Source: Thermodesulfobacteriota bacterium (GTDB lineage: Bacteria; Desulfobacterota_D; UBA1144; Nemesobacterales; JAJCZQ01). From it: 64,000 bases of DNA. Location: NCBI GenBank assembly GCA_965215275.1, contig OZ244044.1:179679-243678 (forward strand), in the 5' to 3' direction. A program made the position numbers and the translations under genes. Positions 998 through 32,890 of the stretch are shown one piece after another. The notes under the pieces were generated by a model. That model saw nothing but the letters and a program-made list of their open reading frames with translations. It did no database searches and was not told where the DNA came from. Each line of letters starts with the position of its first letter. Positions within the stretch are counted from its first letter, which is position 1.

Positions 998-1171
998 GGG
1001 ATTACATACTTAATTGCCAAAAAGCTCAGACTACTTCCTGCACTGACTTTAAAGTTTTGGACAGGTCCTGTCAGTATGAGATATTATTTATCCACTTGAC
1101 ATTCGTTCATAATACTTGGTAAAATATAAATGTTATGAAAAATTCAAACATAAAAACACATAGTTCCATTA

Positions 1172-1182
1172 CCCCCCCCCCC
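1172..1182 (+). repeat. Homopolymeric C11 tract about 9 bp upstream of the -35 element of subtilase paralog 1
   Basis: Counted directly in the sequence. The position is homologous to the C10 tract upstream of paralog 2 (G10 at 26808-26817 on the plus strand). Confidence 0.85.
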
Positions 1183-1190
1183 ATATAAAC

Positions 1191-1219
1191 CTGACCTTTC
1201 AGTCTGGTATAAGTATTTT
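1191..1219 (+). promoter_or_regulatory. Putative sigma70-type promoter of paralog 1: cTGACC, a 17-bp spacer, then TATTTT
   Basis: Spacing and spacer sequence (tttcagtctggtataag) are conserved with the paralog 2 promoter (tttcagctggacataag). The ATG at 1229 lies only 9 nt after the -10 element, so the transcript may be leaderless or have a very short leader. Confidence 0.5.
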
Positions 1220-1242
1220 TTAAGAACAATGTTTAAGATAAT

Positions 1243-1252
1243 CCCCCCCCCC
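1243..1252 (+). repeat. Homopolymeric C10 tract inside the 5' coding region, between ATG 1229 and the signal peptide; candidate translational phase-variation switch
   Basis: ATG(1229)-TTT-AAG-ATA-ATC-C10 runs into TAA at 1256. With C9 or C12 the ATG frame reads MFKIIPPPSKSLLTLVLFILFIMVIAAKG, which continues into the 1296 ORF. Confidence 0.8.
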
Positions 1253-1295
1253 ATCTAAGTCATTACTTACGTTAGTTTTATTTATTCTGTTTATA

Positions 1296-4200
1296 ATGGT
1301 AATAGCTGCAAAAGGGCAGAGCAGCCTGGAAGAAACATTATCTGAATGCAGAGGTATGAGTGCAGACACGGAAGATCCGTTATACGGATGTCAGTGGCAT
1401 CTGAAAAATACAGGACAGTTTAGTATTTCCGGAAATAGAATAACTGCAGGAGAAGATATAAACATAGAGGGAGTGTGGAACGAATACGTATACGGTACCG
1501 GAATTAACGTAGCAGTTGTAAGTGACGGTATCGACCTTTCACATGAGGACCTTTCTGCAAACGTACGTTCCGAACTGAACTATAGTTTTTCTGAGAAAGA
1601 TAATTCTGACAGTTCATCCTTTACCGGAACACGAGCAGCAGGTGTTATTGCAGCGGCTGGATATAACGGACTGGGAGTAAGAGGAACAGCACCTGGTGCG
1701 AGTATATACAGTTACAGGTTATCCGGTGATCTCAGGGAAGCGGACGCGGTGGTCCGTAATAAAGAAATAACAGCAGTATCGGTTAACGGCCTGGGATCTG
1801 AGGACGGAGCTTTTTTTCAGGAGGCTTTATCTTCCTGGGAAGAAGGAGTGGAACTTGGTATAAGTAAAGGGTTTTATGGTAAAGGAGTGTTTTACGTCCG
1901 GGGAGCAGGGGACGGGCATGAGAATAACGATCAGGCTAATTTTTCTGAATATTCTAATTACTACGGCGTAACAGCCGTGTGTTCAACTGACGGTTATGGA
2001 AAAAAGAGTATTTTTTCAGAAGAGGGAGTAAATCTCTGGGTATGTGCACCTGGTTCTGATATTGTAACCACAGATAACAACAACGATTACGTTGTAACTT
2101 CCGGAACATTTCTATCAGCTTCACAGGTCGGAGGAGTGGCTGCACTGCTGAGAGAGATAAACGGGAATCTGAGCTGGAGGGATATAAAGCTTATACTTGC
2201 GGGTTCAGCACGTCAGAACGATTTTTCTGATATTAGCTGGGAGACAGGAGCTGTTAAATACGGCTCTGACACGGAAAGATATAATTATAATCCTAAGTAT
2301 GGTTTTGGCGTGGTAGACGCAGAAGCAGCTGCAGAACTTGCAGGAAGCTGGAAAGGCGTTGGAGAGATGAGGACCGTTACCGCCTTTTCAGATAATGAAA
2401 TAACAATTCCTGATGGAGAAGGAGAAGCGGATGGAATACTTACCTCCACACTTATGATCCCGGACCTGGAGGAAATATTTACGGAATTCGTGGAGGTAGA
2501 ACTTGTTTTCTCTCATGACCGCTTACAGGACCTTAATATACAGATAACCTCTCCTTCCGGGACAGTATCTGAACTTGTGCGGGAGGTTGTAAGGGGATCT
2601 TCGAATGAAGAAGAAAACTGCGTCAGTTACCTGAGAAGAACACATCGTTTCGGGTCGGCTAAGCACCTCGGAGAAGACCCTTCCGGAGAATGGATCCTTA
2701 ATATATCTGATACTGCTTCCGGAGATGCAGAAAACACTGTTACCTTACACTCATGGAGCATTAAGGTATACGGGCATTTTTATCAGGGAACTGGCAATGA
2801 GATAAATCCTAAACATCACAGACTGAATTTTGGCGGTCAGACAATTCAGGATCAGGAGTATCAAGTAGAAGTTCAGATAGCACCATTAGTGCTGCCTAGG
2901 GCAACTGGAGATACTGGAATACAATATAATTTGACTGATGATCCAAACACAGATGGATTTGCCACTAATGTACCAATTGATGGATTGAGTTTTAACCGTG
3001 GAACCAGAACTCTAAGTGGCACACCCACTAATACTGGGTCTTTTGATCTCATATACAGCGCTGTTGGTAGAACAGACGGTACTGCTGCTCAACTTGAGTT
3101 CAACGTTACGGTGGTAAACGTCCCTACCTTCGGAGGTCAGACCATACCAGATCATACGTATGCAAGACTTCAGACAATAAGAAATCCGTTAACTTTTCCT
3201 AAAGCAACGGGAGGGAATGCTCCCTTGACTTACAGTATAACTCCTAAGGTACAGACTGGACTTGCTTTCAGCAGTTCCACTCGGAGGATAACCGGGTCAC
3301 CTGGGACTGTAAGGAGCAGAACTGAGCATACGTATACGGTAACGGACAATGAGGGAGATACGGCTGAGATAACGTTCGGTATAACCGTAGAAGGAAATGA
3401 CAGGAGGCCGCGTTTCAGAGCAGGTGAGAATATCTCTGATAAGTTTTATTTTACAGGTGTTCCGATAACGCCGGTAACGCTGCCCAGGGCAACTAACGGG
3501 AACAGTCCGATAAAATACAGTTTAAATCCTTCTTTACCAACTGGATTGAGCTTTAACGCAAATACCCGGGAGATAAGCGGGACACCGACTGCTGCAAGCA
3601 GTAACACAGAGTATACATACAGAGCATCAGACCTTGATGGAGACAGGCGTGATCTGAAGTTCAGTATCACGGTAAGGGATGCAACTGACGTACCGACCTT
3701 CGGCAGTGAGACGATAGATGATCAGGAGCATACAGCAGGGAGTCAGATAACACCAGTAACGCTGCCTGAGGCAACATCAGGAGATGCTCCGTTAATATAC
3801 CGTTTAACCCCTGCCTTGCCTGATGGATTGATCTATAACAATATCACCGGAGTTATAAGCGGAACACCGACTGCTGCAATGTCTGAGACTATGTATACAT
3901 ATACAGTAACGGATAATGATGGAGATACGGATGAGCTGACGTTTAATATTGAGGTAGCAGCAAGCTTCAGCAACGTAACGATAGAAGATAAGGTGTATAT
4001 AGCAGGTACAGCAGTAACGGAAATGCTGCCTGAGGCAACTGGACATAATGGAACGGTAACCTACAGTTTAACCCCATCATTACCAACTGGACTGGACTTT
4101 AACACAGCTACCCGGGAGATAAGTGGAACACCTTCTGCTGCATCGTCTCAGACTGCTTATACATATACCGTTACTACTGGTGCAGGAGGACCTGCACGAA

Positions 4201-4688
4201 CTTTGACGTTCAGGATAACAGTAGAAGAAGACAGCATGCCGGACTTCAGCGGTACAGCAATACCTGATCGGGTGTACACGGGGAGAGCAATAACGCTGCC
4301 GGAGGCAACGGGAGGGAATCCACCAGTTACTTACAGTATAACACCTGATCTGCCAGCTGGATTGAGATTTAACGAAGTAACGCGGGAAATAAGTGGGACA
4401 CCCAGGAGTGCATCAACAAGAACTTACACGTATACGGTAACGGACAGCAATGGAGATACGGATGATGCGACTTTCATGCTCAGTGTAGAGGTTACTTCTA
4501 CTCCAGGACCAACACCACCACGAGGACCAAGAACGTCAGGTACTGATTCAGGCGGAGGTGGAGGAGGATGTGCCGTCTCAGATCAGATCAGCGTTGTTTA
4601 TGATATTCTCGGAGCAGTGGCATGTCTGATACTTATACCTGTATCAGTAGTTATCAGAAGGAAGAGAAGAGCTCAGATAAAGACGTAG
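1296..4688 (+). CDS. Kexin-like (S8B) subtilase-family surface protein with P-domain, six He_PIG/cadherin-like repeats and a C-terminal Gly/Cys-TM-RRKRR sorting-type signal. The ORF as sequenced begins at 1296; the full-length form would start at ATG 1229 if the C-tract length changed.
   Basis: Asp motif VVSDGIDLSHEDL. The His region is TGTRAAG, where kexins have HGTRCAG. The Ser region is GTFLSAS, where GTS is expected. The P-domain ends in the GEW...HSWSIKVYG pattern. The repeats follow the pattern LPxATGGNxPLTYSxxPxLPxGLxFN..ISGTP..YTYTVTD.GDTD. The C-terminus is GGGGGGCAVS-hydrophobic helix-RRKRRAQIKT. Confidence 0.75.
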   Translation: MVIAAKGQSSLEETLSECRGMSADTEDPLYGCQWHLKNTGQFSISGNRITAGEDINIEGVWNEYVYGTGINVAVVSDGIDLSHEDLSANVRSELNYSFSEKDNSDSSSFTGTRAAGVIAAAGYNGLGVRGTAPGASIYSYRLSGDLREADAVVRNKEITAVSVNGLGSEDGAFFQEALSSWEEGVELGISKGFYGKGVFYVRGAGDGHENNDQANFSEYSNYYGVTAVCSTDGYGKKSIFSEEGVNLWVCAPGSDIVTTDNNNDYVVTSGTFLSASQVGGVAALLREINGNLSWRDIKLILAGSARQNDFSDISWETGAVKYGSDTERYNYNPKYGFGVVDAEAAAELAGSWKGVGEMRTVTAFSDNEITIPDGEGEADGILTSTLMIPDLEEIFTEFVEVELVFSHDRLQDLNIQITSPSGTVSELVREVVRGSSNEEENCVSYLRRTHRFGSAKHLGEDPSGEWILNISDTASGDAENTVTLHSWSIKVYGHFYQGTGNEINPKHHRLNFGGQTIQDQEYQVEVQIAPLVLPRATGDTGIQYNLTDDPNTDGFATNVPIDGLSFNRGTRTLSGTPTNTGSFDLIYSAVGRTDGTAAQLEFNVTVVNVPTFGGQTIPDHTYARLQTIRNPLTFPKATGGNAPLTYSITPKVQTGLAFSSSTRRITGSPGTVRSRTEHTYTVTDNEGDTAEITFGITVEGNDRRPRFRAGENISDKFYFTGVPITPVTLPRATNGNSPIKYSLNPSLPTGLSFNANTREISGTPTAASSNTEYTYRASDLDGDRRDLKFSITVRDATDVPTFGSETIDDQEHTAGSQITPVTLPEATSGDAPLIYRLTPALPDGLIYNNITGVISGTPTAAMSETMYTYTVTDNDGDTDELTFNIEVAASFSNVTIEDKVYIAGTAVTEMLPEATGHNGTVTYSLTPSLPTGLDFNTATREISGTPSAASSQTAYTYTVTTGAGGPARTLTFRITVEEDSMPDFSGTAIPDRVYTGRAITLPEATGGNPPVTYSITPDLPAGLRFNEVTREISGTPRSASTRTYTYTVTDSNGDTDDATFMLSVEVTSTPGPTPPRGPRTSGTDSGGGGGGCAVSDQISVVYDILGAVACLILIPVSVVIRRKRRAQIKT
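2808..4500 (+). repeat. Tandem array of six roughly 95-aa He_PIG/dystroglycan-cadherin-like repeats inside paralog 1
   Basis: The periodic motif PxATGGNAPLTYSITP...TREISGTPT...YTYTVTDNDGDTDE is visible in the translation. Confidence 0.7.
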
Positions 4689-6894: not shown

Positions 6895-7686
6895 GTGTAT
6901 ATTTCAGAAGACGATAATTTAAGTATATACAGATTTAAAGTAGAAAACAGTGGTAAGAACTTTAATTACATAGTTAAATGCAATCAAACGGGAGAATGCG
7001 TTGTGATAGACCCGCTTGACCCGGTTCGATTGCTGAACTTTGTAAGAAAGAACGATATGAGAGTGTCTTATGTAATAAATACCCACGGTCACCCCGATCA
7101 CGTTGAGGGAAATAATCCCATAATTAAGGTTTTTTTGTCATCTAATATCTTAATACACGAACTTGGTATGGATTTTGTTGCACCAAGAGCGGAAGCATTA
7201 AAAGAAGGGGACGTTATAAGTTGTGGTAAACTTAAAATAGATGTTCTGCACACCCCGGGTCACTGCCCCGAACATATTTCTTTAATGATCGGCAGCAATA
7301 TATTTGTAGGAGACACTATTTTTGTCTCCGGATGTGGAAACACAAAGTTCAGAGGTAATACTGATGAACTCTATGAAACTTTCTCAAGTAAGCTGATGAA
7401 ACTGGAAGATGATCTTAATGTGTTCTGCGGGCATGATTATGCAAAAAATAATTTAGAATTTGCTTTAAGTATTGATCATAATAATCCTCATATAAACAGT
7501 AAATTAGAAGAAATTAAAAAACAAAATGAGGTTTTATCTACGATCGGAGAAGAGAAAAAATATAATCCTTTCATGAGAGTTGGTGAAAAAAGTCTGGTCA
7601 GTGCCTTAAAAGAGAAATACCCTGATATGAAGACAGATGAGAGGTCCGTGTTCATTAAATTAAGAGAGCTTAGAGATAACTGGTAA
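6895..7686 (+). CDS. MBL-fold metallo-hydrolase, glyoxalase II-like
   Basis: HxHxDH motif INTHGHPDHVEGN. Size is consistent with a hydroxyacylglutathione hydrolase-like enzyme. Confidence 0.7.
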   Translation: MYISEDDNLSIYRFKVENSGKNFNYIVKCNQTGECVVIDPLDPVRLLNFVRKNDMRVSYVINTHGHPDHVEGNNPIIKVFLSSNILIHELGMDFVAPRAEALKEGDVISCGKLKIDVLHTPGHCPEHISLMIGSNIFVGDTIFVSGCGNTKFRGNTDELYETFSSKLMKLEDDLNVFCGHDYAKNNLEFALSIDHNNPHINSKLEEIKKQNEVLSTIGEEKKYNPFMRVGEKSLVSALKEKYPDMKTDERSVFIKLRELRDNW

Positions 7687-7720
7687 AGTGGTTCTTGTTC
7701 AGGGTAGGGCAGGGGGGGGG

Positions 7721-7741
7721 GCACGTCTCAAGTGGTTTTAA
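7721..7741. repeat. G-rich tract GGGTAGGGCAG11, including an 11-G homopolymer at 7731-7741, lying between convergent 3' ends
   Basis: Seen directly in the sequence. It has G-quadruplex-forming potential. Confidence 0.8.
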
Positions 7742-9539: not shown

Positions 9540-12398
9540 TTACTGAATTCCAAGCACTTCAGCGTCTCTGTCACAGAGCATTCCACCGTCGGTCCTTTTC
9601 TTTACGGTCTCATCACGTTTCCAGGACCTTTCACATCGTGCTTCCATCGTTAGATCATTGACTTCGACCTTCAGGTCGTTACCGTTCTTTATATTGAAAC
9701 GGCTTACTCCGCAGAGGTCGGCAAGTTCAGGTTCATAGGGTTTTATAGTATTATAGAGGTCGCTGTTTAAACTTATCTGAATACCAGCGTCCAGCGGATT
9801 GGAAATACCGTGCGATTTGGCCTCTTCAAGTCGTTTCATACATTGACTTCGTATGTTCAAGACCTCGTTCCAGGCGTTATCCAGCTTAATACTTTCAACG
9901 TCGGGGAATTCAGTAAGATGTACACTTTTTACATCATCAGCCCCGCACTGTTCATTAAGGCACCTGTATGCTTCATCAGCGGTATGTACTAATATTGGTG
10001 CCAGTAATCTTATTAAACCATCTGCTATATCGTACATAATGGTCTGGGAGCGTCTGCGGCGTCTGCTGTCCCGCCTGTCGCAGTATAACCTGTCTTTTAC
10101 AGCTGCCAGATAAACTGAACTTAAAGTTTCAGAGCAGAAACTGAATATTAACTCCCCTGCCCTTTTGTAATCAAATTCAGAATAAGCTTTTTTTGTTCTT
10201 GTGACGAATATAGAAAAATTTACATAGGCCCAGTGGTCAATGGACAGCTTATCTTCATCCGCTGTAAGGTCTGTTTTGTCTTTCTCGGGGTCAAAATCGC
10301 TTATATTGCCCAGCAGGAACCTGATCGTGTTTCTGATCTTCCTGTACTCGTCAGCTGCAACTTCAAAGTATCTCCAGTCCGTCTTTATGTCATTTGAGTA
10401 TTTTAAGTTACTGACCCACCATCTGCATACATCTGCTCCGTGTTTTTTTAATATTTCATCCACATCCAGTGCATTTCCGCCTGATTTGCTCATCTTTTTA
10501 CCGTGAACGTCGACCATAAAGCCGTGAGTGAGAATTCCCCTATATGGTGGTTCACCCGTCACTCCGAGTGCCAGGAGCAAAGACAGATGGAACCAGCCGC
10601 GATGTTGATCGGAACCTTCAAGGTAAAGGTCCGCCGGATATCCTATACTGCGTTTCTGGTGCTTTAAGACCGAGTTCCATGAAGAACCGGATTCGAACCA
10701 CACGTCAAATATATCCATTCCCTTACTGAGCTTGCCTTTGATCAGTTCCGGTTCGTTCTTTATCCAGTCCGGTGCATCAGGGTCATCTGCGGGGTCGTAA
10801 CCCTCAAGTATATGCTCGGCGTCTTCTATGAACCATACATCTGAACCTTTTTCTTTTATCTTGGAAGCAACAAGTTCCACGGTTCGTACCGTTAACAGAT
10901 GCTCTCCCCTGTCATTGGTGAAGTAAGGTATTGGAAGTCCCCAGGACCTCTGTCTTGATATACACCAGTCCGGTCGTGCTTCAAGCATGCCTCTCAGCCT
11001 GTTCCTTCCCCATTCGGGGAAGAACCTTACTTTGTTCACTACGCCGTCAATAGCTTTGTCCCGCAGTGTCTTACCGTCTTTACCATAAGGCTTGTCAACG
11101 GCTACGAACCACTGTTTGGCTGCTCTGAAGATCGTAGGGGTCTTGCTGCGCCAGTCATGGGGATAGCTGTGAAAGTACTCCTCTTCATGGAACAGGTGCC
11201 CGTTTTTCCTTAGCGCATCGATCACTAACTTATTTCCCTTCCATACGTTTACACCCTGCAGCCAGTCCGGAACGGTTTTATCAAAAGTACCGTCCTCCAG
11301 TACGGGGCAGTAAATGTCCAGTCCTTCCTTCAGTCCGGTCTGATAATCTTCGATCCCATGTCCTGGAGCAATGTGAACGATCCCTGTTCCATCTTCAAAA
11401 GTAACGTACTCTGCACCGACGACCACACCACGTCTTTGCATGAATGGATGAACATAGGTAATGCCGCTTTCGGCAAGTTCATCTCCTTTGAAACTCCCGA
11501 TCTTTTTGAAACTTCCCGTACCGGATCTGCCGAACACTTTTTCTGCAAGCAGTTCGGAAAGTATCGTGATTATTTTCTTACCCCAGTGCGTTATTTCATA
11601 TAGACCGTAATCTCCCACTGGTGAAACGGCTGCTGCCAGGTTTGCCGGAAGCGTCCATGGAGTGGTCGTCCAGATCATCAGATAGATATCTTTTCCTGAA
11701 ACTTCGACTGGTAAGGGCAAGTTATTAGTGTCGTCTATCTGAAAAAGGACAAAGATACTTTTATCCTTTCTGTCGTAGTACTCAAGTTCTGCGTCTGCAA
11801 GAGCTGTTTGATTTTCAATTGACCAGTGGATCGGCTTCAGGTCCCTGTAAACGAGCCTGTTATCTATAAGCCGTGCGAACACTTCCAGAACCCCTACTTC
11901 ATACCTGGGGACCATTGTCAGGTACGGGTTATCATAATTCCCGGTAGTTCCAAGCCGTTTCATCTGACCTGACTGGACCTTGACGAACTTACTGGCGTAA
12001 TTAAAGCATTTATTTCTGATCTTCAGCTTTGTATAGCCCCTTGCACTGTCCCCCAGGTCTTTAAGGACCTTATGTTCAATGGGAAGTCCATGACAGTCCC
12101 AGCCGGGAATAAAATCCACGTTATAGCCTTCCATGGTCTTGGACCTCACTACAAGGTCCTTGAGGACTTTATTTAAAAGATGTCCAAGGTGGATCGGTCC
12201 GTTCGCATAAGGAGGACCGTCGTGGAAAATAAATTTTTCCCTGTGTTCAGACCGCTCTCTTGTTTTTTCATAAAGCTTTTCCTCGGCCCAGGCCTTCTGG
12301 AGCGCGGGTTCACGCTGGGTTAAGTTAGCTTTCATTGGAAAGCTGGTCCTGGGAAGGTTCAGGGTGTTTTTATAATTTATCTTTTTTACAGTAGACAT
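9540..12398 (-). CDS. ileS: Isoleucine--tRNA ligase
   Basis: Class I HIGH motif (PYANGPIHLGH) and KMSKS motif; length 952 aa. Confidence 0.9.
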   Translation of the reverse strand: MSTVKKINYKNTLNLPRTSFPMKANLTQREPALQKAWAEEKLYEKTRERSEHREKFIFHDGPPYANGPIHLGHLLNKVLKDLVVRSKTMEGYNVDFIPGWDCHGLPIEHKVLKDLGDSARGYTKLKIRNKCFNYASKFVKVQSGQMKRLGTTGNYDNPYLTMVPRYEVGVLEVFARLIDNRLVYRDLKPIHWSIENQTALADAELEYYDRKDKSIFVLFQIDDTNNLPLPVEVSGKDIYLMIWTTTPWTLPANLAAAVSPVGDYGLYEITHWGKKIITILSELLAEKVFGRSGTGSFKKIGSFKGDELAESGITYVHPFMQRRGVVVGAEYVTFEDGTGIVHIAPGHGIEDYQTGLKEGLDIYCPVLEDGTFDKTVPDWLQGVNVWKGNKLVIDALRKNGHLFHEEEYFHSYPHDWRSKTPTIFRAAKQWFVAVDKPYGKDGKTLRDKAIDGVVNKVRFFPEWGRNRLRGMLEARPDWCISRQRSWGLPIPYFTNDRGEHLLTVRTVELVASKIKEKGSDVWFIEDAEHILEGYDPADDPDAPDWIKNEPELIKGKLSKGMDIFDVWFESGSSWNSVLKHQKRSIGYPADLYLEGSDQHRGWFHLSLLLALGVTGEPPYRGILTHGFMVDVHGKKMSKSGGNALDVDEILKKHGADVCRWWVSNLKYSNDIKTDWRYFEVAADEYRKIRNTIRFLLGNISDFDPEKDKTDLTADEDKLSIDHWAYVNFSIFVTRTKKAYSEFDYKRAGELIFSFCSETLSSVYLAAVKDRLYCDRRDSRRRRRSQTIMYDIADGLIRLLAPILVHTADEAYRCLNEQCGADDVKSVHLTEFPDVESIKLDNAWNEVLNIRSQCMKRLEEAKSHGISNPLDAGIQISLNSDLYNTIKPYEPELADLCGVSRFNIKNGNDLKVEVNDLTMEARCERSWKRDETVKKRTDGGMLCDRDAEVLGIQ

Positions 12399-18383: not shown

Positions 18384-19700
18384 AAGGGAATTATAGTGAA
18401 TAGTTGACAGGAAGAAAAATTGAAAACGGGTCAGAAAATGGGTAATATTATAGCATGGTTAGAACGATCACAAGAACTGTAAAGGCAGATAGTGTTTTTC
18501 ATAAAAGGCTGGATGAATTCTTACAACAGCTTACCGACCTGTATAACGGAGCTTTATATCACAGATTAAGATCTTATGACTGGTATGAAAAAACTATCTC
18601 TAAATACGAACAGTTTAACGAACTAACTGAGGTCCGAGAGCAAGACAAGGAATTTGAAAAGTTTAATGTTGTAGCTCAAAGAAGCGTTCTGGAAAGACTG
18701 GATAATGCATATAGTCCTTATTTGAACTATTTAAAGAATAAAAAAGCAGGAAAGAAGGTGGGCAGACCAAAATACAAAGGTCCAAACAGACCTGTCAGAA
18801 GTTTTGAAACAAACAATTATAAAAACATTGAAAAGATCGGCAGAAGAACGTATTTAACGATAAAGGGACTTGGCAGATTATCTTTCAAAGGTTCTATGCC
18901 TGATGGAGTTGTTTTAAAACAACCTAAAACAACAATAAGGATAGTTAAAACTGCTATAAGGATAAAGATCCAGTTTCTATGTGAGTTTACCAGCGAAAAG
19001 AAAAGACCTATGGACAGGTCCATAGGGATCGATCTTGGAATTATAAACAGAATGGCTTTTTCAGATGGAACTAAAATACCAGGAGTTCGGTTGAACAGAA
19101 AGGAACTGAAAAGAAAGCAGAGAATTGTTTCAAGAGCGGTAAAAGGTTCTGACAGCAGAAAGAAGAAAGTTTTATCGTTAGCAAAGGAATGGGAACGAAC
19201 TACCGATCGTGAAAATAACGCTATACACAGAATGACTACCGAAATAGTAAAAAAGAACAATCATATAAAGTTGGAGGATTTAAAGATCCAAAATATGGTA
19301 AAAAATCCTTATTTAGCAAGAAGTGTAACGGAACAGCAATGGGGGAAGATTAAAACCCAACTTGACTACAAAGCCGAGATAGCTGGAGGCAAGTTAGTTT
19401 TAGTTAATTCCCATTATACAACAATGACCTGTTCTGAATGCGGAAAGGTAAATCCAAAACTGCCTTTGTCTGAAAGAGTATTTAACTGTATATATTGCGG
19501 TTATTCAGAAGACAGGGATATAAATGCAGGTAAAAATATCAATACTCTTAATGAAGGAGACTTCATATCGGGTGGGAATAAGGTAGAAATACTCCCGATG
19601 AGTGCTAAGAGTATCAGATCAAAAGAGAACAGGGATAGAGGAACTCTGCACTCAGAACAGTACGAGTAGTTGTTTGTCAACTATTCACTATAATTCCCTT
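18384..19700 (+). mobile_element. TnpB-only insertion element (IS200/IS605-family OrfB type) bounded by perfect 26-bp terminal inverted repeats
   Basis: 18384-18409 reads AAGGGAATTATAGTGAATAGTTGACA, and 19675-19700 is its exact reverse complement. Confidence 0.75.
18455..19669 (+). CDS. tnpB: TnpB (OrfB) RuvC-like RNA-guided nuclease-family transposase accessory protein
   Basis: RuvC-I motif IGIDLGI. C-terminal zinc finger CSECG...CIYCG. RuvC-III motif RDINAGKNI. Confidence 0.8.
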   Translation: MVRTITRTVKADSVFHKRLDEFLQQLTDLYNGALYHRLRSYDWYEKTISKYEQFNELTEVREQDKEFEKFNVVAQRSVLERLDNAYSPYLNYLKNKKAGKKVGRPKYKGPNRPVRSFETNNYKNIEKIGRRTYLTIKGLGRLSFKGSMPDGVVLKQPKTTIRIVKTAIRIKIQFLCEFTSEKKRPMDRSIGIDLGIINRMAFSDGTKIPGVRLNRKELKRKQRIVSRAVKGSDSRKKKVLSLAKEWERTTDRENNAIHRMTTEIVKKNNHIKLEDLKIQNMVKNPYLARSVTEQQWGKIKTQLDYKAEIAGGKLVLVNSHYTTMTCSECGKVNPKLPLSERVFNCIYCGYSEDRDINAGKNINTLNEGDFISGGNKVEILPMSAKSIRSKENRDRGTLHSEQYE

Positions 19701-22731: not shown

Positions 22732-24035
22732 TTGTCAATGGGAACTATATACTTAAGTATCCAGTGGATACTAAAAGTTCTCTTTGACGAGTCATAGACC
22801 AGTTCCTGTCCCCAACCCCTCTGCAGTCTCCCCGTCCAATCACCCCTTTCCCTGAGGCTATAATTTGTTTTATTCCAGTTTCCAACTGGTTAAATGCAGC
22901 ATTTAAGTCAGCATTAACTTCATAACCGCAAGATGTACACTTAAATCTGGATTGCGATCTTCTGTTATCAGGAGATCTGTGTCCGCATTCAGAACAGGTT
23001 TGACTGGTATATGCAGCTGGAACTTCTTCAGTAGCATTACACTTGTAATCCAGCATCCTTTTCATATCAAACCAGCCAGTAGCACGAATGTTCCTGTTCA
23101 TCTTGCGAAAGTTCTTCCATTTCTTTCTGGCTGTCATCCCTTGTGTATTAAGTCTCTCAAGTACAGGAACATCATAAAGATCGGAGATCTTTCTTGTAAC
23201 CTGATGTCTCCAGTCCTTCTGTCTGTTTGCCAGCTTCCTATGAAGTTTCTGTAACCTTTCCTTAGTAATTCTCCACCTGTTACTTCTCTCTTCCTGACGT
23301 GCAAGTTTCTTTTGGTATCTGCGTATCTTTGCTTCTGTAAGTTCATCATCAGATAACTTAAAAACCTGTCCGTCAGACAGCGTAACCTGTCTTGAATTCC
23401 TGTCCATTGCTACAACTCTTACTTCTTTCTTTTCCTTTTTAGTTTCATCTATCTCATAGGTAAGGTACGCATACCACTTACCGCATTCCTTCCTTATCCT
23501 GCCAGAAAGGAACTTTCCATCAGGATATGGATTCTTACCTGCCAACCTGAACCATCCAACCTTTAAAATACGGAGCCACTTATTATCTGACAGTTTAGCT
23601 GACTGATAATTTACCGGGAATGAAGGAGTGGTTTTTAATTTACTCTTGAATTTAGGTTGTCCCGATTTTCCATCCCTGTATCTCTTACAGGCATTTGTAA
23701 GGTCCAGTAAATAATGCTGAAGTATGTAAGCAGATGCTTCTTTCAGAAAGTAGTTCTTTTCTTCTTTCTTCAATTCTCTCAAATCGTTACCTAAACTCTC
23801 ATGACCATAACCATCATTAAAATCATTATCCTTTAAATTTCCCACGAATTGATTCCAGATAAACCTGCAACAGCCAGCAGTAGAGGAAAGTTTATGAAAC
23901 TTCTCCCTGTTGTTTGATCTCAACCTCTGCCTTACCGTTCTTATTGTCTTACCTTCTTTCATATTTGTAATTTTACCTTATTCCCTTGCTTTTTTTAAGT
24001 AGTTTGGATAGTTAAGTATATAGTCCCCTTGTCAA
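22732..24035 (-). mobile_element. Second, distinct TnpB-only insertion element with imperfect terminal inverted repeats of about 30 bp
   Basis: 22732-22762 reads TTGTCAATGGGAACTATATACTTAAGTATCC. The reverse complement of 24006-24035 is TTGACAAGGGGACTATATACTTAACTATCC. Confidence 0.65.
22745..23962 (-). CDS. tnpB: TnpB (OrfB)-family protein
   Basis: C-terminal zinc finger CSECG...CTSCG and RuvC-III-like VNADLNAAFN; 405 aa. Confidence 0.8.
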   Translation of the reverse strand: MKEGKTIRTVRQRLRSNNREKFHKLSSTAGCCRFIWNQFVGNLKDNDFNDGYGHESLGNDLRELKKEEKNYFLKEASAYILQHYLLDLTNACKRYRDGKSGQPKFKSKLKTTPSFPVNYQSAKLSDNKWLRILKVGWFRLAGKNPYPDGKFLSGRIRKECGKWYAYLTYEIDETKKEKKEVRVVAMDRNSRQVTLSDGQVFKLSDDELTEAKIRRYQKKLARQEERSNRWRITKERLQKLHRKLANRQKDWRHQVTRKISDLYDVPVLERLNTQGMTARKKWKNFRKMNRNIRATGWFDMKRMLDYKCNATEEVPAAYTSQTCSECGHRSPDNRRSQSRFKCTSCGYEVNADLNAAFNQLETGIKQIIASGKGVIGRGDCRGVGDRNWSMTRQRELLVSTGYLSI

Positions 24036-24240: not shown

Positions 24241-26694
24241 TCAGGTCTTTATCCGAGACCTAATCTTCCTTCTTATCACAACAGATACAGGTATAAGCAT
24301 CAGCGATGCCACTGCTGTGAGCATATCAGGAACGGCTTCGCTCTGACCGGAGACCGCACATCCTCCTCCGCCTGTATCACTACCTGATGACGTTGGTCTT
24401 TGTGTCGGTGGTCTTGTTGTTGGTGGGTCTGTCGGTCCTGGCGGCGTAGTTGTTACCCTGATCGTAAATCTCAGCTCATCCGTATCTCCATCTTCGTCCG
24501 TTACCTTATATGTATAACTGCCAGAAGATACAGCAGTCGGTGTTCCGCTGATAACTCTGTCAGTTTCACTGAAAGCAAGTCCAGCAGGTAAACCAGTAGC
24601 AGGTAAAAGAGGGGACAGGCTGTAGGTCAGTTCTCCATTCCCTGCTGTTGCCTCAGGCAGTGTTTCTTTTATTGCAGTTCCCGGCACGTAATTCTTATCT
24701 GGTATGGTCCAGTTGTTAAACGTCGGCGTGTCCCCAGACATATGACCATAGACCTTTATGTTCCATGAGTGTAAGGTCCCCGTACCTGCAATTGAATTGT
24801 TAGTTATCTTCAAGGTCCACTCTCCAGCAGGGTCCGTTCCTAAGTGATTGGCTAAACCAAAACGATGTTCCCTGCCTGTGTACTTAAAGTCGTCTACAGT
24901 AAGAGATCCGTCAGATAAATGTGATAACGCTTCTGATGCATATTCCTCAGTGAGTTTTGACACGGTAGTATCGTCAGGAGAAGTTATTTCTATATCTAAA
25001 AAAGGAAAGAAAGGATGGGTAAAATTGATACCTATCTCTATAAATTCCGTAAATACCTCAGTGTCTGGTATATCTATATCAGGTACTGTCAGTGTGAAAA
25101 CAACTGAAACGTCTTCTGCGTTTTCCCCCGTTGTGAAGTCTGGTATAACCGTATTGATATTACCCGAGGAAACCGTCACGGGTTTCATTTGCGGTGGAAC
25201 GTTGGTCCAGCTTTCTGCAAGTTCCACTGCAGCTGCAGCGTCTACTGTGCCAAAAGTATCTACTGTGCCAAAACCGAACTTTGGATTGTAAAAATAATAC
25301 TCTGAATCAGAACCGTATTGAAGTGCTACTCTCTTCCATTCTTGGGTATCACCGGAACGGGAGCCCTGGCTGGCTGAACCTGCCAAGATCAGTTTCAGGT
25401 CTCGCCAGCTAAGATCACTGTTTACCTCTCTCATCAGTGCTGCAATTCCTGAAACGACCGCTGCTGAATTTGACGTTCCAGGGAACTCAAAAGTATAACC
25501 GTCGTTATTGTCGGTAGTTACAATACCGGAACCCGGTGCACATACCCATAGATTGTATCCCTCTTCTGAAAAGGAACTCTTAGTAACAGCGAGCGCATCC
25601 CTATCGATCTCTGATGAACATACGGTAGTTACTGCGTAGTAGTTGGAATACTCATCAAAATTAGCCTGGTCTGATCCTTCATGTCCGTCCCCTGCCGCCC
25701 ATACGTAAAACACCCCTTTACCACCAAATCCTTCTCTTATACCCGTTCTCACCCCTTCTTCCCACTCTGATGAAGCCTCTGTAAGAACGGGAAGGTCCTT
25801 CGGTCCCCAGTTGTTGACCGATACAGCAGTTATATCCTTATTACGGACCATGGCGTCCTTTGCATTAGCATCACTGAAGTTACCAGCTAAATTATAACTG
25901 TAGATGTTTGCCTCAGGTGCTACACCTCTTACTCCAAGGCTGTTATCACCCACTGCTGCTATAATGCCAGCTACACGTGTTCCACGACCACTGAAAGGAC
26001 TGTACAGATCACCATTCCCAGAGTAATCATGAGAAAGTGTGGTATCTACATTGTCAGCAAGGTCCTCATGGTCTGTGTCCATACCATGATCTACCACCGC
26101 TACGTTAATCCCAGCACCAAATACGGCATCATCCCAGACATCTTCTATGTTTATGTCTATATCTTGTCTGGCGGAGGTTTGGAATACCTTATCGCCACCT
26201 AATATTACATCAACCGCTGGAGATTCCAGATACCACTGACAGCCGTATAAGGGATCATTTGGAAAATTGGTAGTAATAATTGAACAGGTTTCAAAGAGTT
26301 GATTAGAATCAGCTAATTGAACTTGAACTCGATAGGATGTAGCACCACTGCTTCCTACAACGATATAGTACGTTCCCCGTCTGAGGTGAGTTTGTATAGA
26401 TATATTTCCTAGTAGCCTTTCATCACTTGGGTCCACTACTTCAGTAGTACTTGCTATCAGATCATCATTACTGTCACATACCTGTAGGCTGTATTCCTGA
26501 TCATTGGAGAAGGGGAAGGTTACCAATATATCTGCAATAAAATCTCCATTTATGTTTATCTGAAAGTAATGCGGATCAGCACCGGCAGCTAAACTTCCAT
26601 TGTGTGTTGGTCCTTGCACTCTCAACGTAGCTTCGGTCGTTGCACTGGAGTCACAGTTGTTAATGCTGGTCTTACCATATGCACTAATGGACAC
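24241..26694 (-). CDS. Kexin-like (S8B) subtilase-family surface protein, paralog 2. It has an N-terminal beta-sandwich-type pre-domain, a P-domain, one He_PIG repeat and the same C-terminal sorting-type signal. The full-length form would start at ATG 26758 if the C-tract length changed.
   Basis: Asp motif VVDHGMDTDHEDL. The His region is RGTRVAG, with no His. The Ser region is GTSNSAA. The P-domain ends in GEWTLKITNN...HSWNIKVYG. The C-terminus is GGGGCAVS-hydrophobic helix-RRKIRSRIKT. Confidence 0.75.
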   Translation of the reverse strand: MSISAYGKTSINNCDSSATTEATLRVQGPTHNGSLAAGADPHYFQININGDFIADILVTFPFSNDQEYSLQVCDSNDDLIASTTEVVDPSDERLLGNISIQTHLRRGTYYIVVGSSGATSYRVQVQLADSNQLFETCSIITTNFPNDPLYGCQWYLESPAVDVILGGDKVFQTSARQDIDINIEDVWDDAVFGAGINVAVVDHGMDTDHEDLADNVDTTLSHDYSGNGDLYSPFSGRGTRVAGIIAAVGDNSLGVRGVAPEANIYSYNLAGNFSDANAKDAMVRNKDITAVSVNNWGPKDLPVLTEASSEWEEGVRTGIREGFGGKGVFYVWAAGDGHEGSDQANFDEYSNYYAVTTVCSSEIDRDALAVTKSSFSEEGYNLWVCAPGSGIVTTDNNDGYTFEFPGTSNSAAVVSGIAALMREVNSDLSWRDLKLILAGSASQGSRSGDTQEWKRVALQYGSDSEYYFYNPKFGFGTVDTFGTVDAAAAVELAESWTNVPPQMKPVTVSSGNINTVIPDFTTGENAEDVSVVFTLTVPDIDIPDTEVFTEFIEIGINFTHPFFPFLDIEITSPDDTTVSKLTEEYASEALSHLSDGSLTVDDFKYTGREHRFGLANHLGTDPAGEWTLKITNNSIAGTGTLHSWNIKVYGHMSGDTPTFNNWTIPDKNYVPGTAIKETLPEATAGNGELTYSLSPLLPATGLPAGLAFSETDRVISGTPTAVSSGSYTYKVTDEDGDTDELRFTIRVTTTPPGPTDPPTTRPPTQRPTSSGSDTGGGGCAVSGQSEAVPDMLTAVASLMLIPVSVVIRRKIRSRIKT

Positions 26695-26732
26695 AAAGCA
26701 CAGAAGAAAGAAAAAAGGAATTAATAACTTAT

Positions 26733-26744
26733 GGGGGGGGGGGG
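26733..26744 (-). repeat. Homopolymeric C12 tract on the coding strand (G12 on the plus strand), lying between the upstream ATG and the signal peptide of paralog 2
   Basis: ATG-TTG-AAG-TTT-CTC-C12 runs into TAA. With C11 or C14 the frame reads MLKFLPPPHKLLIPFFFLLCFVSISAYG, which continues into the protease frame. Confidence 0.8.
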
Positions 26745-26767
26745 AGAAACTTCAACATTATTATATT

Positions 26768-26796
26768 ATTGTACTTATGTCCAGCTGAAAGGTCAA
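26768..26796 (-). promoter_or_regulatory. Putative sigma70 promoter of paralog 2: TTGACC, a 17-bp spacer, then TACAAT
   Basis: Near-consensus hexamers with 17-bp spacing. The ATG at 26758 is 9 nt after the -10 element. Confidence 0.6.
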
Positions 26797-26807
26797 GTAT
26801 ATATGGA

Positions 26808-26817
26808 GGGGGGGGGG
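26808..26817 (-). repeat. Homopolymeric C10 tract on the coding strand (G10 on the plus strand), 11 bp upstream of the -35 element of paralog 2
   Basis: Position is homologous to the C11 tract at 1172-1182. Confidence 0.85.
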
Positions 26818-27048
26818 TAACAGAGATACGCGTTTTTAAACTCATAATAGTGATATTCTACTTCTGTTCTGCTGTAATGTCAAGTATAACGTCTTTCTCT
26901 TTCCCTTTTTTACAGTGATAAAGATCTTCAGGATATACGGATCATTCCTAAAATAACAATGAATAATTAAGACAATGCGACAGAGTTTGATAAAATAGAT
27001 CAAAGTATTATCTGAAACTAAAACCTGTACTTTATCTGACTATATATT

Positions 27049-32499: not shown

Positions 32500-32890
32500 C
32501 CATTCAGTATATCTTAAGAAGTTCCTTTCTGATCACTGCTCCGAGCAGATCAGGAAAGACATAGTTATGATCGGAGGTTGCACGTCCACCACCGCCAGGA
32601 CCAGCATCTTATGTTAATATCTAAAGCTGGTCCTGGTGTTGGATTCACTGCCCCTACCCTGATCATGAAGTTCAGTTCATCCGTATTTCCATCTTCGTCT
32701 TCTGCCGTAGAGGTGTAAGTACTGAAAGAGTGCTCCACTTCCTCCCGCTGCCTCAGGTAGAATTGCTGTAATTGAACTCTCTACTACGCACTGCCGATTG
32801 GAGATGGCTACTCCCCCACTCCCTTAAATGAAATTCTGTTATCCAGGTTAGAAGTATAAGTGTTTTCTACGACGGGATAGAGAGAGGTAA
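32500..32890 (-). pseudogene. Decayed 3' remnant of a third kexin-like surface-protein paralog, containing a P-domain end, a He_PIG fragment and a sorting-signal fragment
   Basis: The reverse-complement translation gives TAILPEAAGGSGAL, then ...YTSTAEDEDGNTDELNFMIRV, then ...GPGGGGRATSDHNYVFPDLLGAVIRKELLKIY*. These are homologous to LPEATAGNGELTYSL...YTYKVTDEDGDTDELRFTIRV...GGGGCAVSDQISVVYDILGAVACL...RRKRR. Nucleotide similarity to 24440-24520 is visible. There are frameshifts, internal deletions and no TM segment. Confidence 0.7.

Follow-up and report, generated by a model that had tools for sequence, protein, structure and literature searches.

Poly-C tracts as probable slipped-strand switches in a large family of subtilase-fold surface genes of a Dadabacteria-like bacterium

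Homopolymer contingency loci are well established in a small number of human pathogens. We describe here what are probably loci of the same kind in an uncultured bacterium: on a 64,000-nucleotide stretch of contig OZ244044.1 (assembly GCA_965215275.1, Thermodesulfobacteriota bacterium; positions 179,679 to 243,678, hereafter the window), two paralogous genes with a subtilase fold, paralog 1 on the plus strand and paralog 2 (family protein P0001) on the minus strand, carry runs of cytosine between their start codons and the region that encodes the signal peptide. The nearest single analogue is the gene for NalP (AspA), a secreted, subtilisin-like serine protease of Neisseria meningitidis; this gene likewise contains poly-C within its coding sequence. 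The nalP tract ranges from 6 to 15 C, changes by slipped-strand mispairing and gives expression of the secreted serine protease at 7, 10 or 13 (PMC3723659). NalP is, however, a single-copy and active autotransporter, whereas the family described here has at least 53 paralogs, its tract-bearing members appear catalytically dead and have no autotransporter domain, and, unlike in NalP, the tracts lie within tandem modules of promoter and ATG.

At the level of a gene family, the nearest analogue is Neisseria Opa, with its repeats in the region coding for the leader peptide. In Opa and PilC, the repeat follows the start codon and precedes the hydrophobic core of the leader, and the paralogs switch independently to give combinatorial surface variation. 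The Opa repeats, of the pentamer CTCTT, occur in about 11 genes, which encode beta-barrel adhesins, whereas here the repeat is a homopolymer, the genes are about five times more numerous and the fold is unrelated. In lic1 and lic2A of Haemophilus influenzae, more than one start codon is found upstream of the repeat and expression is graded; those ATGs are in different frames ahead of one tetranucleotide repeat, whereas each of the two ATGs described here, which are in frame with one another, has a promoter-like site and a homopolymer of its own. Campylobacter genomes are small (about 1.7 Mb) and AT-rich. Of their poly-G/C tracts, 53% have a length of 9 and 26% a length of 10, and across the genus a strain has 5-81 phase-variable genes (PMC6321876). 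The length spectrum of our family is Campylobacter-like (8-12, with a mode of 9 in one assembly), but the Campylobacter tracts are scattered over unrelated genes, whereas here they belong mostly to one paralogous family and occupy a fixed position in a conserved 5′ cassette. A literature search gave nothing relevant on this family or on phase variation in Dadabacteria. What sets the family apart from the known loci is its scale, the fixed 5′ cassette with a promoter-like site of its own and a predicted near-leaderless start, the tandem tracts, the lost catalysis and the lineage; the mechanism is a known one. We regard it as probable that slipped-strand phase variation operates on a family of at least 53 members in this Dadabacteria-like bacterium.

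Read directly from the minus strand, paralog 2 begins TAATG TTG AAG TTT CT, continues with exactly 12 C (26744-26733) and then with ATAAGTTATTAATTCC. As assembled, the ATG at 26758-26756 gives MLKFLPPPP and ends at a TAA (26731-26729). Across the same bases the long frame reads stop-C-stop-SFSPPPHKLLIPFFFLLCFVSISAYGKTS...; an in-frame TGA (26754-26752) precedes the tract, and the earliest possible start in this frame is a GTG at 26694, within the signal peptide. When the tract length was varied in silico, ATG 26758 joined the long open reading frame (ORF) solely at C5, C8, C11 and C14, and at C11 or C14 it is fused to the signal peptide (HKLLIPFFF...AYG) and an open frame of 817 codons. Relatives also have this signal-peptide segment. 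The only starts that lead into it are ATG 26758 and an upstream ATG at 26845; at C12, either one reaches TAA after a few codons. Paralog 2 has two C tracts in its 5′ coding region, C12 five codons behind ATG 26758 and C10 nine codons behind ATG 26845, where G/C tracts of at least about 7 are typical of repeat contingency, and a change of one unit toggles between a full-length ORF and a stop within a few codons. The original prediction had proposed this arrangement of start, tract and stop, the TGA ahead of the tract and the restoring lengths C11 and C14, and in all of these it was right, as it was in placing the tract at 26733-26744; only its notation CTC-C12 needs correction, as it counts one C twice.

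Paralog 1 has the same build. Its ATG at 1229 is followed by C10 (1243-1252), reads MFKIIPPPI and then meets TAA; the in-silico lengths that bring it into frame are C6, C9, C12 and C15, and the ATG-to-tract spacings of its two modules (described below) are 4 and 12 codons. An identical layout in both window paralogs had been predicted and is what we find. The two had also been described as having different tract lengths and independent OFF states: the lengths do differ (C10 and C12) and both genes are out of frame, but OFF is here a property of the assembly consensus only. The long runs are not due to chance. A pattern for runs of ten C or G has eight matches in the window compared to 0.10 expected from 100 dinucleotide-preserving shuffles, an enrichment of about 80-fold, and none of the 100 shuffles reached eight. 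These matches form five tracts of at least 10, of which four head the two family genes.

Both window genes carry a second, upstream module of promoter, ATG and poly-C, which had been overlooked. The ATG at 26758 and its C12 are therefore real but are neither the sole candidate start nor the sole tract of paralog 2, as ATG 26845 and its C10 lie upstream; we refer to the upstream start as ATG1 and to the downstream one as ATG2. From ATG 26845, the frame runs through nine codons and the C10 and then remains open for 20 codons in frame with ATG 26758, and the promoter-like site of module 2 (26796-26768) falls within these 20 codons. ATG1 of paralog 2 remains linked to ATG2 only when tract 1 is C7, C10 or C13. 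In both window genes, the other two frames of the inter-tract segment hold two to four stops each. An open in-frame inter-tract segment is also found in protein P0037, and a third gene with two modules is present in locus L023, where the first tract has decayed to CCCTCCCCCACC (frame read by eye). Because the segment is open only in the frame that joins ATG1 to ATG2 in both window genes, and is open and in frame in P0037 and L023 as well, we think that a long form initiated at ATG1 is real and that such a gene would have two nested switches. A role of the upstream C10/C11 in a promoter spacer or UP element was considered and dropped, as a complete module of promoter and ATG stands upstream of the tract and the inter-tract segment is open only in the frame that joins both ATGs.

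Twelve modules at nine genes from three assemblies share one order: a -35 hexamer (TTGACA, TTGACC or CTGACC), 17-18 nt, a -10 hexamer (TAnnnT), 6-10 nt, ATG, 11-35 nt and poly-C, with 4-12 codons from ATG to tract. The promoter-like sites resemble strong sigma-70 promoters and score 10-11 of 12 in a consensus scan. Within the 64 kb of the window, the strict pattern TTGAC[AC] finds three of the four modules of both family genes and nothing else; the second module of paralog 1 (CTGACC) is matched by a relaxed pattern only. None of the modules has a Shine-Dalgarno sequence in the 6-10 nt gap, compared to a Shine-Dalgarno-like motif at about two thirds of the other window genes, from which we reasonably infer that family transcripts are leaderless or have a very short leader; for ATG1 of paralog 2 the leader would be absent or at most 4 nt. 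In all twelve modules, the tract is poly-C on the sense strand and never poly-G, whichever genome strand carries the gene. It is nearly always followed by AT, and both wrong frames stop, mostly at TAA, within 1-7 codons of the tract.

For a comparison across genomes, as the original prediction had asked, we set the window beside DNA from ERZ21848999 and ERZ21849000, which together give the nine tract-bearing genes and twelve modules; only loci with DNA, or proteins reading through PPP, were counted as tract evidence. ERZ21849000 is the same organism as GCA_964348445.1, since L023 and L024 have identical sequences, and these two loci were counted once. The layout of ATG, codons, poly-C and signal peptide recurs in all nine genes. 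One gene, in L001 (C8), is in frame. The other eight are out of frame, by +1 in window paralogs 1 (C10) and 2 (C12) and by -1 in L012, L013, L021, the first and second genes of L023 (C9 each) and L015 (C10); the tracts span 8-12 C, apart from the decayed one. In the source genome, at least nine proteins (P0026, P0037, P0040, P0041, P0042, P0045, P0050, P0125 and P0255) read in frame through PPP or PPPP into the signal peptide, with the form M..K/R-I-I-PPP-x-K-signal peptide. One of these, P0255 (MKQVMNILFRIIPPPFPSKS...), belongs to an ortholog cluster of at least 90% identity, in which its orthologs from two other assemblies, P0052 and P0256, are called 46 residues shorter (protein level only). 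Tract lengths thus differ among homologous loci, and both in-frame and out-of-frame alleles exist. The out-of-frame paralogs hold 772-1312 codons without an internal stop, and pairwise ratios of nonsynonymous to synonymous substitution (dN/dS) among them are 0.32-0.48; the genes are kept functional despite the frameshift and are not dead. These values fit out-of-frame genes being translated often enough to stay under purifying selection. The spread of lengths, the two kinds of allele and the purifying selection support the earlier view that the tract is a conserved, selected switch and not a random homopolymer.

The nearest S8 relatives beyond this clade share about 40-45% identity, come mostly from metagenome-assembled genomes (MAGs) of Dehalococcoidia and have no tract at the gene start. 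The matches from a genome collection were all distant S8 proteins, mostly of Dehalococcoidia MAGs (27-53% identity in the aligned part, about 40% for the closest matches of full length), with no C/G run at the starts of their genes, and a metagenome scan gave five loci of about 40% identity, none with a tract at the gene start. We had also taken truncated N-termini (MSIGAYG..., MVIAAKG...) as a sign of an out-of-frame tract in about 38 paralogs. This was dropped after L022, where, at 9948-10003, the gene for P0027, which is in frame and has no tract, is called 18 codons late with its start inside the signal peptide. As the gene caller truncated this gene despite an in-frame upstream ATG, predicted N-termini in the family are unreliable.

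Tracts also occur outside the family, in genes of the same lineage that resemble classic contingency loci. At L013 3256-3264, an in-frame C9 lies at the end of the signal peptide of a 172-residue protein with no Pfam match (MNTLSYRFFIVITCFVSSLLYPPPHAFAEQ...), which shows that poly-C tracts in leader peptides extend beyond the subtilase-like genes. At L023 15233-15241 (also in GCA_964348445.1), the frame of an MmeI-like type IIG restriction-modification gene is broken at a G9, which leaves its Type_ISP_C part separate; the two would be reunited at G10, and an MmeI-like enzyme of the same lineage therefore looks phase-variable from its reading frames. The fifth long run of the window, a G10 on the plus strand (7712-7721), lies at no gene start, in the 63-nt gap between two convergent genes with their ends at 7686 (glyoxalase-II-like) and 7750 (short-chain dehydrogenase).

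We suggest that the C12 run of paralog 2 acts as a slipped-strand (contingency) switch. Replication slippage would shift the run by one unit in either direction at high frequency, so that expression of each gene would be gained or lost reversibly in a lineage, whatever the state of its paralogs, and the population would thereby carry many combinations of surface variants. The upstream C10 would be a second switch for the form begun at ATG1, which would need both tracts in frame; the ATG2 form would need only C11 or C14. Two tracts would permit off, partial and full expression.

Several observations weigh against this proposal. The lengths are those of the assembly consensus, and the offsets are uniform within each assembly: in ERZ21849000/GCA_964348445.1, a SPAdes assembly with a contig coverage of only 12-18x, all six out-of-frame family tracts are one base short, as is the G9 of the restriction-modification gene, and in the window three of the four tracts are one base too long. 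The state of any single tract is therefore unproven. The other assemblies have no ortholog that is at least 90% identical to paralog 2, and promoter function, the transcript start and the use of ATG1 or ATG2 follow from consensus matches only. The uniform offsets reflect either a mutational equilibrium near 9-10 or a length bias of the sequencing platform, and every platform is at its weakest on long homopolymers of G or C. If the lengths were miscalled by one base, the genes would be in frame and constitutive. We consider this unlikely, although it is the alternative we take most seriously. There is no blanket one-base error, since the same assemblies have in-frame C9/G9 tracts in intact genes (L013 3256-3264 and L001 1188-1196), and an in-frame C8 allele of the family exists (L001). 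The window has 34 housekeeping ORFs, each of them intact, so the assembly has no general problem with frameshifts. Illumina sequencing has been reported to be accurate on poly-G of such length in Campylobacter (PMC6321876). Even if the lengths were wrong, a C11 at the gene start would still be hypermutable.

The same one-base offsets might be read as programmed recoding, in which slippage of RNA polymerase, or of tRNA-Pro on CCC-C while the ribosome is stalled on polyproline, yields a regulated fraction of full-length protein. The C run is formally a perfect slippery site, and most alleles would need a change of exactly one base to be in frame. Ribosomes tend to shift by +1 on CCC-C close to the start, and they stall on PPP in the absence of EF-P. 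We nevertheless judge recoding improbable, because transcriptional slippage is classically efficient on A/T runs and not on C runs, because the homologs would need shifts of different direction (+1 for the window genes, -1 for six others and 0 where the allele is in frame), and because no stimulatory RNA structure was found after the tract in the four genes that were folded (z-scores of -0.78, +1.23, -1.22 and -0.81). The share of out-of-frame copies, eight of the nine tract-bearing genes for which there is DNA, might suggest pseudogenes in decay, whose first lesions are frameshifts at a fragile homopolymer; catalytic residues are lost in most members, a family fragment lies at 32510-32805, and many source-genome proteins are called with truncated N-termini. 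This we find very unlikely in view of the long stop-free frames and the low dN/dS, of the lesion never falling outside the tract and leaving it in each case a single step from an in-frame length, and of the conservation of promoter, ATG and tract in the modules. Least credible of all is that the tract exists to encode a functional Pro-Pro-Pro in the n-region of the signal peptide, with the homopolymer incidental. Every nearest in-frame allele does encode exactly PPP or PPPP. However, CCC makes up only 22% of the proline codons of the window housekeeping genes and 4 of the 42-55 in the mature parts of the two window family genes, in which every other PP motif uses mixed codons, and the run goes past codon boundaries. 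The C run is thus a feature of the DNA and not a by-product of the peptide, and the codon pattern argues that it is selected as DNA. Moreover, members without a tract (P0018 and P0035 in L014, P0027 in L022) also lack PPP and have normal signal peptides that look functional, so the PPP peptide is not required. Slipped-strand switching remains the reading that we prefer.

Both window ORFs match Peptidase_S8, a proprotein-convertase P-domain and He_PIG repeats in Pfam, and the S8 fold (PF00082, 8e-33) and the P-domain (PF01483, 2e-10) are above threshold. The best PDB matches are furin (1p8j, E = 1e-31) and kexin, and the kexin/furin-type subtilases (S8 plus P-domain) are the closest structural relatives by sequence. 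Unlike these, the Asp-His-Ser triad is incomplete in paralog 2 and absent in paralog 1. Compared to furin, paralog 2 keeps Asp and Ser, but His194 is replaced by Arg (SGRGTRVAG) and the oxyanion Asn by Asp; in paralog 1, Asp is changed to Ser, His to Thr and Ser to Phe. The window gene products are probably not active proteases but subtilase-fold pseudo-enzymes, and the label of protease that they were first given probably does not hold. Among 64 family proteins, the triad is kept only in P0013, P0016, P0017, P0018, P0021, P0027, P0029, P0035 and P0047; P0061 retains Asp and His, with the Ser position in an alignment gap. Four of the 48 listed source-genome members keep it. None of the triad-keeping members has PPP, and the three for which there is DNA have no tract, while every known tract-bearing member lacks at least one catalytic residue. 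The unswitched members are thus likely to be true proteases, and from their residues the switchable members are predicted to be pseudo-enzymes.

The source genome is a single contig of 1,990,023 bp. The 120 best protein matches listed include 48 family members from it, and with at least five more within 90% clusters the family has at least 53. Going by the lengths of the 48 listed proteins, we estimate its share of the 2 Mb genome at several per cent. The RNA polymerase beta′ subunit shares 81% identity with that of Thermodesulfobacteriota-labelled MAGs and 73% with that of Candidatus Dadabacteria, which places the bacterium in a Dadabacteria-like lineage.

The C-termini of all family members (window 24244-24400, minus strand, and 4401-4685, plus strand; L012 3043-3678) have G(4-6)-C-[AV]-[SI], about 20 hydrophobic residues and RRKIRSRIK, which looks like a tripartite sorting signal, and the window gene products are probably secreted and membrane-anchored. 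Pfam and NCBIfam scans found no autotransporter family or beta-barrel translocator; the C-terminus consists of GGGGC, one transmembrane helix and a basic tail. Of the known sorting domains whose models were tested (GVDTG-CTERM, Synerg-CTERM, Heimdall-CTERM and MYXO-CTERM), none reached its NCBIfam cut-off (best match GVDTG_CTERM, 14.3 compared to 29 bits; Synerg-CTERM 12.6 compared to 22.5), and the tail resembles such domains weakly, in architecture only. We note an Rce1-like CAAX protease gene just upstream of the family member in L012. The features of the two window genes are collected in Table 1.

Table 1. Positions of promoter-like sites, start codons, poly-C tracts and open frames of the two window genes
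Feature	Position	Strand	Remarks
Paralog 1, module 1 promoter-like site	1096..1125	+	TTGACA, 18 nt, TAAAAT (TG-extended); 11/12 consensus; ends 9 nt before ATG1
Paralog 1, ATG1	1135..1137	+	
Paralog 1, poly-C tract 1 (C11)	1172..1182	+	+1 out of frame, MKNSNIKTHSSITPPPI then stop; in frame at 7, 10, 13
Paralog 1, module 2 promoter-like site	1191..1219	+	CTGACC, 17 nt, TATTTT; ends 9 nt before ATG2
Paralog 1, ATG2	1229..1231	+	
Paralog 1, poly-C tract 2 (C10)	1243..1252	+	+1 out of frame; in frame at 6, 9, 12, 15
Paralog 1, long open frame	1254..4688	+	Signal peptide SKSLLTLVLFILFIMVIAAKG, S8 fold, P-domain, six He_PIG repeats, C-terminal anchor
Paralog 2, module 1 promoter-like site	26855..26883	-	TTGACA, 17 nt, TAGAAT; 11/12 consensus; ends 9 nt before ATG1
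Paralog 2, ATG1	26843..26845	-	No Shine-Dalgarno; reads MSLKTRISVTPPPPYILDLSAGHKYNNIIMLKFLPPPP then stop; in frame with ATG2
Paralog 2, poly-C tract 1 (C10, then TCC)	26808..26817	-	In frame as assembled
Paralog 2, module 2 promoter-like site	26768..26796	-	TTGACC, 17 nt, TACAAT; 10/12 consensus; ends 9 nt before ATG2
Paralog 2, ATG2	26756..26758	-	Start in the original prediction
Paralog 2, poly-C tract 2 (C12)	26733..26744	-	+1 out of frame; in frame at 5, 8, 11, 14
Paralog 2, TAA closing MLKFLPPPP	26729..26731	-	Direct read
Paralog 2, signal-peptide segment, long frame	26674..26733	-	HKLLIPFFFLLCFVSISAYG; A-x-G site before K/Q
Paralog 2, long open frame	24241..26733	-	N-terminal domain, Peptidase_S8, P-domain, He_PIG, GGGGC/transmembrane/RRK tail

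The rest of the window is housekeeping in character (DnaJ, the isoleucyl- and valyl-tRNA synthetases IleRS and ValRS, the pyruvate dehydrogenase complex, EF-G, purL/purF and rpoB/rpoC), and a Ham1 protein gene neighbours paralog 2. The family fragment at 32510-32805 (minus strand), with He_PIG and a C-terminal anchor, is about 40-53% identical by tblastn; it is the third family sequence of the window, lies between a Band_7 gene and EF-G and looks like the relic of a lost paralog. Two IS605-type TnpB genes (OrfB / Cas12f-like TNB) are present at 18455-19669 (plus strand) and 22745-23962 (minus strand); one window TnpB gene is directly 3′ of paralog 2, and a TnpB fragment lies between two family genes at L014 580-993. 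Such elements may be linked to the spread of the family. An Rfam search gave no match in the window.

The wider picture that we would draw, and hold only tentatively, is of at least 53 subtilase-fold surface genes, most of them dead as enzymes and independently switched by poly-C, a few active and unswitched, and some with tandem cassettes that could act as two-bit or graded controls; this would amount to antigenic or receptor variation in the style of Neisseria and Campylobacter, at a larger scale, in a non-pathogenic, probably host-associated marine lineage without described precedent. In this uncultured lineage, whether environmental or symbiotic, a single and greatly enlarged family seems to be controlled by the same kind of switch as in those pathogens. 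Because its genes are shortened or divided by gene callers, annotation understates both its signal peptides and its expression potential. The tandem cassettes of start and tract offer a testable case of multi-level stochastic control. With several per cent of the genome devoted to the family, selection on the cell surface is expected to be strong and fluctuating, and host recognition, phage and grazers are candidate forces. The split between switchable dead enzymes and unswitched live ones suggests a route by which an enzyme family may become a variable coat.

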